From: Microthyrium microscopicum
Taxonomy: Eukaryota
Assembly (NCBI GenBank): GCA_010405405.1
Contig: MU004232.1
Span: 2,437,481 to 2,501,480 of the forward strand
Direction of reading: 5' to 3'
Length of the DNA stretch: 64,000 bases
Part shown: in pieces, positions 59,381 to 64,000 of the stretch
Layout: each line of letters starts with the position of its first letter
Position numbering within the stretch: position 1 is the stretch's first letter
Notes under the pieces: generated by a model
What the model saw: only the letters and a program-made list of their open reading frames with translations
The model's database searches: none
Told to the model about the DNA's origin: nothing
Translations under genes and position numbers: made by a program

Positions 59381-61559
59381 ATGACTACTCCTCAGCCTAT
59401 CCTAGACAATGCGCCCATTGCCCCCGCCAACGGAACCGCTATAACAAACGGCAATGGCGCTATACATGACGGACCCGTCAGTCATGGCGATGTCATTTGC
59501 GGTCCGCTCATCAACTACAAGCGCATGAGCAATGAGCTTACTGAGCAACCACTATGGCATGGCAGCGTTCTCATTGTCACCAGGGCCGGCTTAGACACCC
59601 CAGAGCTTCGCCTTGGATGTATAGGGTCCGTCTCTGGCAAAGGACCTGAGGGTGGATTTACACTACCAACTCAAACATTTCCAGGCGAAAAGCTGTATGA
59701 GGATTCGGCGAAAACCTTTTATCGATTCGTCATACAAGCCCCCATTCAAGATTTCGAAGCCAAGTGGGAGTATTCCCTAAGCCAGAACCTCAATGTCGCC
59801 GCGAAAGTTTTCGTTATTCCTTCCAAGCAACAATCGATGCGCATTCTTTTTCATTCCTGCAATGGATTCAGCGTCGGTACGGATGAAGATGCTTGGAGCG
59901 GACCCGCACTATGGAACGATGTCAACCGAGTCCACGCGACCAAACCTTTCCATGTCATGATCGGTGGTGGGGACCAAATCTATAACGACAATGTTCGAGT
60001 CACAGGACCATTGAGAGAATGGACTGATATTGGCGATCCCATCAAAAGGAGAAATTACCTTTTCAACGAGGATATGCGCTTGAAGTGTGACGAACACTAC
60101 TACAATAATTACATCCGATGGTACGGGCAGGAGCCATTCAAGAGCGCAAACTGTATTATTCCACAAATCAATATTTGGGATGATCATGATATCATTGACG
60201 GTTTTGGATCTTACACCGATCACTTCATGAAATGCCATGTTTTCCGCGGAATTGGCGGCGTCGCGCACAAGTATGACTTCTGTTACTACATTTGATCCAC
60301 CGCTAACATCATACAGATATTACCTCCTATTCCAGCATCACATTGCCCCTCCCCCGAGTACATTTACTTCCGATCATGTGGCAAGTCAACATGCAGGCGG
60401 AGCTCCAGATCCTGTGCAATTGGAGAAGAGCTTCGTTCTTTCTGAAACTGTAGAGGATCCATCCTTCATCATCGGACGGAAACCTGGTCCATACGTTGAA
60501 GAGCCTAGCCGAAGCATCTATTGCCAACTGGGTGCGCGTATTGGATTCATTGGGGTCGATGCCAGACAAGAGCGAACGAGACATCAAGTCAATTATCCAG
60601 AGACGTACGATCTAATATTTGATCGGCTTACCAAGGAGTACACAGCACATCCAGAACTACAGCATCTGGTCGTGCTCTTGGGTGTTCCAATCGCATATCC
60701 CCGTCTTACATGGCTCGAAAACATTCTCAGCTCACCACTTATTGCACCCATCAAATTTCTCAACAAGCGCTTTGGACTCGGTGGTTCGTTGTTCAACAAG
60801 TTTGATGGCAAAGTCGATCTTCTGGACGACTTGGATGATCACTACACCGCGCGCCAACACAAGCACGAACGCTGCGAACTCGTTCAACGACTCCAAGTCC
60901 TCGCCAAACAATTCAACGTCCGCGTCACCATCCTCGGTGGCGACGTCCATCTTGCCGCCGTCGGCCGCTTCTACTCCAAACCCAGCCTCAAAATACCCGC
61001 CGAGCAGGACTGGCGCTACATGGTCAATGTAATCTCCAGCGCAATCACCAACAAGCCGCCCCCATCCGGCGTCGCCAACCTCCTCGCCCGCCGCAACAAA
61101 ATCCACCATCTCGACCATGAAACAGACGAAACACTACTCGAATGCTTCGACCACGACCCAGGCATGGCTCCCAATAGCGTACAGCATACAGACACAAACG
61201 TTGCCAGAAAGACTAAGGATACCAACCACGCGACCATGCCTTCTCGCAACTATGCCATCATCACAGAAAGTCAGCCTCTTGGTGCAGAAGCCCAGTCCGT
61301 GCATTCTGAACATCCAGCCCTCAATACCAACAAGCCTAACATGCGTAAACCAATGCACGACGGTGAAAAGGAGGCCGGCACAACCCATCCAGCAGCCAGT
61401 GGAGTAGAGCCCAGTGGACGCGGAGGCCAGTATGGACTTGATGTCACTTTTCGTGTGGAGATCAGCAATAAGGATAAAGAAGGAAACACGGAGGGCTATG
61501 GCTTCACTATTCCTGGATTGAATGCTAGTGCATATGCTCAGGAGGGGACGAAGTGGTAA
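59381..61559 (+). CDS. PhoD-like metallophosphatase domain protein (conserved fungal family); exons 59381-60270 and 60317-61559
   Basis: FHSCNGFS, GGGDQIYND, WDDHDIIDGFGSY and GGDVHLAA motifs; phase-2 intron. Confidence 0.88.
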
Positions 61560-62628
61560 CGTGAGAAAGTTGTGTGGGTATTGTTATTTTTAGGGAATGG
61601 GAGGAAGTCTTGGTTGTGATTGATGGTTGTCTACGTTAAAAGGCCTGGGCGTCTTTAGTTGTTGTTACTTGTACTATACGCTGTTGTACTTGTAGCTGTA
61701 TCGCTTTGGTTGTTTGGATGGATGAATACCCTTTTGTTAATGGAGTGTATTCACTTGTAATGCGTTTCTATATGTAAGATGGGCGGTAGATAGATAAATT
61801 GAGTGATGCTTTGATACTTCTGGGTAATTGATGATTAAGTGTCTGAATACTTTTCGATTTAGACACTCCGTACTGACACTGGTAGGAAGACAATAGAGGC
61901 TCCAGCATATCACTTCAAAGGCATATGGTAGGTCTCTTGTTCAAAATCCAGGTCAAATGTGTGCAGTCACTGGCTGAACAGAATAACTGGCGAGTTCCCA
62001 TCGACTTCGTTGGCCGCCATCCACGTCGCTTCCTTATGACTGCGTTCTTTTCAATCGACCGCGCGAAACAGTTATACTTAATTGATTATGGTCGGAGAAT
62101 ACGTATATTTCGAATGTAGGGATGGTGGCAGCCATCACCGTCCATGAGAGAATGCCGTTTATCCTGCAAGGCTGAATGCCTCGGATATATGGCGAATACT
62201 GCCTGTGGCAACAAGGATAAAAGGCGTCAAAAATGCCACATGGACATTTTTGCAGACGGGAAGGAGCATAGAAGTGGTGGCTTGAGCTTCTGATGTTCCT
62301 CATCAACAAGGCTGCCTTCAATTCTAAACATTTTCTCATCCTTTCTTCTAGCACATTCTACTACTATACCAAGACTCAGCCCCAGTAATCACTTTCCAAT
62401 CCGTGAACTCCTAGGACCAGACAACTCACCGGACCTGCACCTTTGACTGCTCCAACAGCAACAGCTACCAACCCCAGCTCCAGTCTCTCGCCACAGCCCC
62501 ACCAACTACCAGTTAACCATTCCCAGTTAAGAAGCCCTTCCCTCCGCGGTTCGGGCTTATAAAGCTTCAAGCTGGGGACTAAACGCAAGCAATCTTTAAG
62601 CCTGCCATACGGCTCGAGCAAAAAAATC

Positions 62629-64000
62629 ATGACAGTACGTGTTCCTATGCTATACCTTGTGAATATACCCCTGGTAGACCTTCATTCTACTGTTGTTCAG
62701 CAGTCAGGACGTTAGGCGCCCTAGGCTGCACCACTTTACTATCAACACTACGGTTTACTACATAGGCAAGATTCTGACTTTTTGTTCTTCTAGGAAATGC
62801 AAATAGACGATCCTGCCGCAGCAGCGGCTGAACTGAAAGATTCTCATGGCGAAATCGACGAATCGTTGTACAGCCGACAGCTCTACGTCCTGGGCCACGA
62901 GGCCATGAAACGTATGGGTCTGTCGGATGTGTTGGTTGTTGGCCTTCGCGGTCTTGGAGTCGAAATAGCAAAGAACATTGCTCTCGCTGGCGTCAAATCT
63001 CTTACTCTCTACGATCCCAAGCCTGCCCTTCTATCCGACCTCTCCGCTCAATACTTCCTACATCCAGCTGACGTTGGCAAGCCCCGCGCCAGTGTCACAG
63101 TTCCTCGTGTGTCCGAACTGAACCCATATACTCCTATAAAGGAATTGCAGGCAAAGGATTTGACGAGCGATCTTAGCTTGTTGGATCAGTTCAAAGCTAT
63201 TGTGCTTACTGATACCTCACTCAAGGACCAGTTGATCATTGCGGACTATTGCCACAAGAAGGGGATATATTTGGTCATCACGGATACCTTCGGTCTCTTT
63301 GGCACGATCTTCACGGACTTTGGCGCGAACTTTACCTGTGGCGATCCAACAGGCGAAAACGCGCAGACTGGTATCGTGGCTGGCATTGATGACGAGGGTA
63401 TTGTCACCGCATTTGATGAGACACGACATGGCTTGGAAGACGGAGATTTCGTGACATTTCACGAAGTAGAAGGAATGGAAGGTATCCATGATGCTCCGCC
63501 TTTCAAAATTGAGGTGAAAGGACCCTACACGTTCAGCATTGGCGACGTCTCGAAATTTGGCCAATACAAGCGTGGTGGCATATTCACTCAAGTCAAGATG
63601 CCTAAAATCATCGACTTCAAGCCAATGTCAGAAGAGATAAAGAACCCAACACAGCTTATATCCGACTTTGCAAAATTTGACCGACCAATGCAGCTACATG
63701 TTGGTTTTCAAGCACTACACAAGTTTGCAGAATCTCACGGGGCTCTTCCTCGCCCACACAACGATGCGGATGCGGCGCAAATCTTGAAGCTCTCCCAAGA
63801 AATCAATGAAACTCTCGGCGAGAACAAGGCAGAGCTATCCGAAGATTTACTCAAGGAGCTCAGCTATCAAGCTCGTGGCGAACTTGCCCCAATGACTGCT
63901 GTATTTGGTGGACTTGCCGCACAAGAGGTCTTGAAATCTGTATCTGGCAAATTCCACCCAATCGTCCAATGGATGACTTTCGATTCCTTGGAGTCGCTAC
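62629..64000 (+). CDS. UBA1: Ubiquitin-activating enzyme E1, 5' part; 6-nt first coding exon 62629-62634, then 62794 to the window end
   Basis: Manual translation gives EIDESLYSRQLYVLGHEAMKRM, GLRGLGVEIAKNIALAGVKS, RHGLEDGD and GGLAAQEVLKSVSGKFHP; not in the ORF track because it runs off the edge. Confidence 0.97.

Follow-up and report, generated by a model that had tools for sequence, protein, structure and literature searches.

The 64,000-nucleotide (nt) window analyzed here (contig MU004232.1 of the Microthyrium microscopicum assembly GCA_010405405.1, positions 2,437,481 to 2,501,480 of the forward strand) ends within a gene for the ubiquitin-activating enzyme E1, and the question raised by this locus is whether the gene encodes, ahead of its first AUG, a second and longer isoform that begins at a CUG codon. 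The open reading frame (ORF) at 62797-63999 is 100% identical to the stored protein P0001 (1028 amino acids [aa]), which carries the E1 Pfam domains PF00899, PF10585, PF16190, PF16191, and PF09358, and it is 73 to 83% identical to named fungal E1 proteins; by this domain set and by orthology, the gene is UBA1. The comparison with related fungi described below makes it very likely that a long UBA1 isoform is translated from the CUG at position 62572 and that this isoform is conserved across the Pezizomycotina.

In the window, the reading frame is closed by a TAA codon at 62560, which is followed by the codons AGC, TTC, and AAG and then, four codons downstream of the stop and with no ATG between the two, by CTG 62572. 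From this codon, the frame is open over 19 codons up to the ATG at 62629; the translation that follows the stop is SFKLGTKRKQSLSLPYGSSKKIMT, and the 19 codons ahead of ATG 62629 read LGTKRKQSLSLPYGSSKKI before Met. The positions assigned to these elements in a preliminary description of the locus, namely, the TAA, the CTG with its AAG-CTG-G context, the 19 codons, the ATG, and a TATAAA, all proved exact when the sequence was read again. An open stretch of 19 codons is expected by chance with a P of about 0.40 under uniform codons, and the window alone is weak evidence; it is the comparison with relatives alone that lends significance. Between 62294 and 62628, all frames are free of ATG, with about 2.25 expected in the 254 nt that lie under RNA cover, and CTG 62572 is unique within 62375-62628 as a near-cognate codon with a purine at -3 and a G at +4.

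For the comparison, 24 Dothideomycete E1 proteins were aligned (alignment A1), and metagenome contigs were then scanned, which gave 80 UBA1 loci. The gene start was located in 69 of them, the other 11 being without the 5' part of the gene, and a short exon 1 was present in 51 of the 69. Together with the window, these 51 loci make up 52 sequences, which fall into 43 groups with below 90% nucleotide identity to each other. Exon 1 encodes x-L-G-K-R-K-x-S ... K-K-x-M, followed by one codon and GT, and contigs that are spliced or have no intron show it continuing in frame into the main ORF. The named proteins nearest to the loci belong to Dothideomycetes, Lecanoromycetes, Eurotiomycetes, Leotiomycetes, and Sordariomycetes (class was checked for five anchor species, and the labels of the remaining species are those that we take to apply), and two further, deeper lineages are just 64 to 68% identical to anything named. 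The nearest named E1 of the window itself, at 78% identity, is from the Venturiales. As for the 18 remaining loci with a located gene start, four of them (L017, L024, L048, and L055) have 209 nt or less of upstream sequence. An exon of this kind was not seen in 13 loci that are at most 63.3% identical to every named Pezizomycotina E1, 7 of which have under 200 nt of upstream sequence; judged by their identity and N termini, these look like yeasts and other non-Pezizomycotina fungi. The last locus, L039, was omitted from the counts, as its start codon was not placeable. This divergent, transcript-like E1 contig (L039:16-394) is at most 74% identical to named proteins. Upstream, its frame is open for 126 codons, includes RKR and KK clusters, and lacks an ATG up to a point 24 codons ahead of the conserved core; its possible starts are a CTG at 139 and an ACG at 151.

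The codon homologous to CTG 62572 is CTG in 35 of the 43 groups, TTG in 3, and GTG, ACG, ATT, ATA, and ATG in 1 each; in all 43 groups, it is therefore AUG or a one-base variant of AUG. An A is found at -3 in 40 groups and a G at +4 in 36. The first 33 sequences had been found by a peptide pattern that left the choice of codon free, and later variants were placed by ungapped alignment to the KRK cluster. In these first sequences, the leucine is encoded by CTG in 33 of 33, while the neighboring codons vary synonymously (the lysine at -1 is AAG in 18 and AAA in 15, and the next codon is GGG in 19, GGT in 10, GGA in 2, and GGC and TTG in 1 each). The codons CTC, CTT, CTA, and TTA never occur at the start position, though they account for 58% of the 2216 leucine codons in the main ORFs of the same loci, where CTG makes up 24% and CTG and TTG together make up 42%. 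At the start codon itself, the third base is 95% conserved. An in-frame ATG between this codon and the first stop upstream of it is found in just 3 of the 43 groups and is absent in 40; this stop is only 4, 5, and 6 codons away in the window, L007, and L041/L042, respectively, and 31 groups have no ATG in any frame in the available upstream sequence of up to 200 nt.

The same position is occupied by ATG in Venturia inaequalis (P0033) and in the group of L019, L028, and L029, and there annotators call the extension coding. The peptide also begins with ATG in Zasmidium (P0144 and P0170) and Lecanosticta (P0159), and it is seen in named models that read through the region (Lachnellula P0179, Chlorociboria P0190, and Emarellia P0180). 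Judged from these alignments, the class of the start codon, its context, and the peptide are conserved across the Pezizomycotina. The preliminary description had looked to relatives for a conserved in-frame CUG, for conserved basic residues, and for change biased toward synonymous sites, and all three were found: the CUG as counted above, the basic residues with K in 36, R in 36, and K/R in 40 of the 43 groups, and the synonymous bias as described below. In L035, L036, and L045, the loci nearest to Alternaria, the start is TTG and A-S-K-R-K stands in place of G-K-R-K, a change of codon and of +1 residue that is specific to this lineage.

We propose that in the AUG-free leader of the UBA1 mRNA, a fraction of the scanning ribosomes would initiate at CUG 62572, the context of which is strong (A at -3 and G at +4), and would produce a long isoform extended at the N terminus by 19 residues, with Met as the first of them. 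The remaining ribosomes would leak to AUG 62629 and produce the short isoform, at a ratio between the two forms that we infer. The two basic clusters 11 residues apart, together with a [KR][KR]xS motif, would act as a nuclear-import signal, possibly one controlled by phosphorylation, and a single mRNA would in this way provide both an E1 enriched in the nucleus and a general pool of the enzyme, like the mammalian two-AUG UBA1a/UBA1b. As a whole, a CUG-initiated long isoform with a nuclear-import role is probably the best explanation of the data; for the role of the extension taken separately, nuclear import is the best reading and is plausible, with the balance tipping slightly in its favor. 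When the initiator is taken as Met, two basic dipeptides lie 10 to 12 residues apart in 37 of the 43 groups, the KR and KK of the window being separated by 11. A strict consensus for a bipartite nuclear localization signal (NLS) consists of KR, 10 to 12 residues, and then K[KR][KR] or K[KR]x[KR]. The initial view that KR-x11-KK resembles such a signal thus stands as far as the loose two-cluster pattern is concerned, whereas the strict form of the downstream cluster does not occur in the window, which has KKIM.

Several observations weigh against this reading. With regard to the start, the naive probability that 38 leucines would all be encoded by CTG or TTG (4.5e-15) is overstated, as the groups share descent, although synonymous changes in the neighboring codons occurred many times, and the placement of the start in L032, L033, L041/L042, and L056 depends on the ungapped alignment to the KRK cluster. 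RNA contigs cannot show where transcripts start, and further, shorter transcripts that begin after the CTG may exist. Initiation at the CUG is something that we infer only from conservation. In L012 and L037, the extensions are 35 to 36 codons long and the spacing is broken. With regard to the role, the strict bipartite consensus is found in just 5 of the 43 groups, and a phmmer search of PDB chains with the N terminus of L058 aligned the extension to no solved E1; with a full-length human chain, 9mc4_A (1058 aa), the alignment begins only at query residue 40, opposite chain residue 44. It is therefore by functional analogy, not by demonstrated homology, that the extension resembles UBA1a. In addition, yeast Uba1-GFP is reported to be mainly nuclear (PMC4544378), and the yeast-like loci of our survey show no such extension; therefore, E1 can enter the nucleus unaided by it.

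It is in this context conceivable, if rather unlikely, that the extension is translated from the CUG and serves a purpose other than nuclear import, such as tuning the translation of the main ORF, providing a phosphorylation-regulated interaction or degradation signal at [KR][KR]xS, or directing the enzyme to another compartment. The rarity of the strict NLS consensus and the nuclear location reported for the yeast enzyme, which lacks such an extension, would agree with this, as would the presence of a Ser at +6 in 33 and of [KR][KR]xS in 37 of the 43 groups. A phosphorylation site and an import signal are, however, compatible, since the part of mammalian UBA1 that is found in the long form only combines an NLS with phosphorylated serines (PMC4596250), and the spacing of the two clusters, conserved as it is in 37 groups, is more readily explained by a bipartite signal than by a kinase site on its own. 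N-myristoylation of the Met-Gly N terminus was also considered, Gly being the next residue in 32 of the 43 groups. This modification calls for a small or hydroxyl residue four places after the Gly, and it was rejected as a general reading because that position is variable (L in 15, A in 8, and V in 6).

RNA data bear on a second alternative, which we regard as improbable, namely, that the CTG is a relic in this fungus, with most transcripts starting below the TATAAA and encoding the short form only. The RNA is from the only public run found to contain the stretch, X1, which is not on record as RNA and whose kind was a guess. An 821-nt contig from this run joins 62375-62634 to 62794-63353 with zero differences and a mean depth of 2646, and it skips exactly 159 nt with GT..AG ends; therefore, X1 holds spliced UBA1 RNA, and intron 1 is confirmed. 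Based on this contig, UBA1 transcripts extend at least 197 nt upstream of the CTG, so that the mRNA includes the start codon, and in four spliced, mRNA-like relatives (L006, L018, L053, and L058), the sequence ahead of the CTG is 147 to 323 nt long. The open frame, its coverage by mRNA, and the intron are observed. A relic would be in keeping with the TATAAA at 62558 being lineage specific and overlapping the stop and with the inability of contigs to reveal transcript starts, but the contig that is spliced to exon 2 begins well before this element, and the CTG, its context, and the peptide are all intact in the window. The caveat raised at the outset, that the TATAAA could place the transcription start downstream of the CTG, is therefore weakened, as the contig begins at 62375 and the TATAAA is not conserved; it retains its force with regard to possible shorter transcripts.

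The same contig bears on the stored gene model. P0001 starts at ATG 62797, a second in-frame ATG that is located in exon 2 and is followed by the UBA1 ORF, and it lacks the two-codon exon 1 (ATG ACA) and the intron at 62635-62793. That exon 1 was missed by the model is indicated by the spliced RNA contig and by relatives whose proteins begin with MTE or MTD. The spliced reading over the junction of exons 1 and 2 agrees with the annotated V. inaequalis protein P0033, which contains ...MTEMQIDDP, and the arrangement of an ATG and one codon followed by GT is kept in relatives. The expectation that annotation would miss the extension thus holds, with the model beginning two AUGs too late and missing even the short exon 1. 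In four loci (L007:2920-3070, L032:307-454, L037:212-419, and L008:1241-1364), the extension runs straight into the main ORF, and the first ATG is not followed by an intron. Where the contig is long, as is that of L007 (16 kb), this points to a loss of intron 1 in some Dothideomycete lineages and not to a contig derived from RNA.

A third and still less probable alternative is that the conserved stretch is a noncoding leader element, be it a promoter, protein-binding, or RNA element, and that AUG 62629 or 62797 is the sole start. The evidence for translation is not direct, a TATAAA is present at 62558, and codon -2 is kept as the nucleotides GNC (G in 86% and C in 84%) with a residue that varies among A, G, and V; this last feature is what would be expected of an initiation context and not of constraint on the protein. 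At codon -1, AAR or another codon beginning with A is found. Conservation nevertheless begins abruptly at the start codon: the sequence upstream is unalignable, the commonest residue at codons -10 to -3 accounts for no more than 26%, and the peptide is kept downstream, where G is found in 32 and S (Ser at +6) in 33 of the 43 groups in addition to the basic residues noted above, with third positions conserved at 30 to 63%. The mean pairwise differences at codon positions 1, 2, and 3 are.41,.38, and.54 in the extension versus.72,.69, and.72 just upstream, based on 23 gap-free sequences. In the same 23 sequences, the pN/pS of the extension is.53, with pS near saturation. Third positions are thus the most variable, and between close relatives the changes are synonymous only: over the 18 extension codons, L058 differs from L043 by synonymous changes alone. 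The Sordariomycete-like loci L043, L044, L047, and L050 are identical over 63 nt from the CTG and diverge from about -12 upstream. These comparisons between loci are simple difference counts, in which some pairs are misaligned by indels.

The behavior of the frame likewise speaks against a noncoding element. The distance from the start codon to the ATG is 18 to 22 codons in 41 of the 43 groups, and the two codons are in frame in 52 of 52 sequences despite lengths that range from 18 to 36 codons overall. In the lineages with an ATG at the same codon, the extension is annotated as coding, as mentioned above, and the TATAAA is not kept in relatives. The window RNA has no notable fold; an initiation-aiding hairpin downstream of the CUG was considered in this regard and dropped when the fold of 62566-62634 gave a z of -0.60.

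Least probable of all is that the extension is coding and is entered from another start, either a different near-cognate codon or an AUG exon spliced on just upstream. In its favor, the -1 codon AAG is a weak near-cognate and has an AG end, an in-frame ATG occurs 9 codons upstream in L008, and P0064 opens with an ATG that precedes its Leu by 5 codons. Against it, the -1 codon is AAA, neither an AG acceptor nor a near-cognate, in 15 of the first 33 sequences; the RNA contig is colinear with the genome over 197 nt upstream and has no ATG there; three lineages have a stop 4 to 6 codons ahead of the start; and conservation sets in at the CTG context and no earlier. On account of the AAA codons and the colinear RNA, splicing from an upstream exon or use of an AG acceptor at the AAG was rejected. 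The features on which the CUG-initiated reading is built are listed with their coordinates below.

Table 1. Features at the 5' end of UBA1, in window coordinates
Feature	Position	Strand	Remarks
In-frame stop TAA	62560-62562	+	Overlapped by TATAAA; read directly
TATAAA	62558..62563	+	Overlaps TAA; within transcribed leader; not kept in relatives
ATG-free 5' leader of UBA1 mRNA upstream of CTG	62375..62571	+	Covered by RNA contig
Initiation context TTC AAG CTG G	62566..62575	+	A at -3, G at +4
CTG, proposed non-AUG start of long UBA1 isoform	62572..62574	+	Homologous codon in 43 groups
Putative N-terminal extension, 18 codons GTKRKQSLSLPYGSSKKI, basic clusters KRK and KK	62575..62628	+	Translation; peptide pattern kept in relatives
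ATG ACA, first AUG, short-isoform start, and end of exon 1	62629..62634	+	RNA contig joint 62634->62794
Intron 1, 159 nt, GT..AG, phase 0	62635..62793	+	Joint skipping 159 nt in run X1
UBA1 exon 2, runs off the window	62794..64000	+	ORF 62797-63999

The kind of feature described here is already known from other genes. In mammals, an NLS and phosphorylated serines lie within the first 11 residues of UBA1a, and UBA1b is initiated at a Met further downstream (PMC4596250). The proposed fungal arrangement is similar in that one E1 mRNA would have two in-frame starts and a basic part with serines that belongs to the long form only; it differs in that both mammalian starts are AUG and the mammalian extension has 40 residues, whereas in the fungi, CUG or a different near-cognate codon would serve as the upstream start and the extension has about 19. 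Two N-terminal E1 proteoforms from alternative starts are also described for Arabidopsis UBA1, with Met63 listed (PMC8770321), and in that case, unlike the upstream CUG of the fungi, a downstream AUG is used.

Within the Pezizomycotina, the closest parallel with regard to the start codon is cpc-1, the start of which is conserved as CUG in 73 of 100 species and as UUG in 4, in a context of A at -3 and G at +4 (PMC5487733). UBA1 shares with it the subphylum, a conserved position with near-cognate swaps (CUG/UUG), the A-3/G+4 context, and purifying selection in the main frame. The cpc-1 extensions, in contrast, have about 180 residues, overlap upstream ORFs (uORFs), and serve the translational control of a transcription factor, whereas that of UBA1 is short, lacks uORFs, and resembles a targeting tag; moreover, initiation was shown experimentally for cpc-1, while for the UBA1 CUG it is proposed. 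The supplements of the cpc-1 study (PMC5487733) make no mention of "ubiquitin." With regard to function, fungal 6-phosphogluconate dehydrogenase (PGD) is comparable, in which a non-AUG start gives a peroxisomal isoform (PMC7214817). In both cases, a cryptic, conserved targeting signal would lie in the annotated 5' untranslated region of a housekeeping enzyme, behind a near-cognate start, and lead to dual localization. The signal of PGD is a PTS2 for peroxisomes with an AGG AUU start and was shown in Ustilago, whereas that of UBA1 is NLS-like, follows a CUG, and is predicted from its sequence. No description of a non-AUG start or an N-terminal extension for fungal UBA1 was found in a literature search that left subscription journals largely outside its reach.

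UBA1 heads nearly all ubiquitylation, and if the proposed reading is true, gene models across a subphylum are without a real, nuclear-directed isoform of this enzyme. The locus would then also be a short, deeply conserved non-AUG case, with no uORFs, one dominant codon, and a sharp edge of conservation, which would make it convenient for work on start-codon stringency in fungi, and the hypothesis of a compartment-specific E1 supply would become directly testable with simple reporters. More speculatively, the split into a long and a short E1 might be ancient and repeatedly maintained in eukaryotes, through a pair of AUGs in mammals, through Met1 and Met63 in Arabidopsis, and through CUG and AUG in the Pezizomycotina, with the fungal ratio set by start-codon stringency and with eIF1/eIF5 levels or stress retuning the nuclear ubiquitin-activating capacity; we consider this doubtful at present.

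Upstream of UBA1 in the window, RNA contigs cover the 3' side of the neighboring gene (ORF 60237-61559) to about position 61808 at a depth of 705. A separate RNA piece of low depth (42.7) is located at 61803-62290, and the stretch just before the UBA1 contig, 62291-62374, is without cover.

Some of the named E1 records deserve a remark. A word-index search with residues 1 to 40 of P0064 matched just 2 proteins, too few for a survey of annotated extensions. Two E1 proteins labeled Quercus suber, P0164 and P0183, are among the best matches to the fungal profile, and P0183 carries the fungal extension peptide in a form nearly identical to that of locus L007; both look like fungal contaminants in the oak record. 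Finally, the fungal E1 models P0058, P0178, P0180, P0182, P0186, and P0190 are 1250 to 1472 aa long and contain foreign Pfam domains, of the GST type or others. These models look like fusions with neighboring genes, and in P0180 it is the read-through that exposes the extension peptide.

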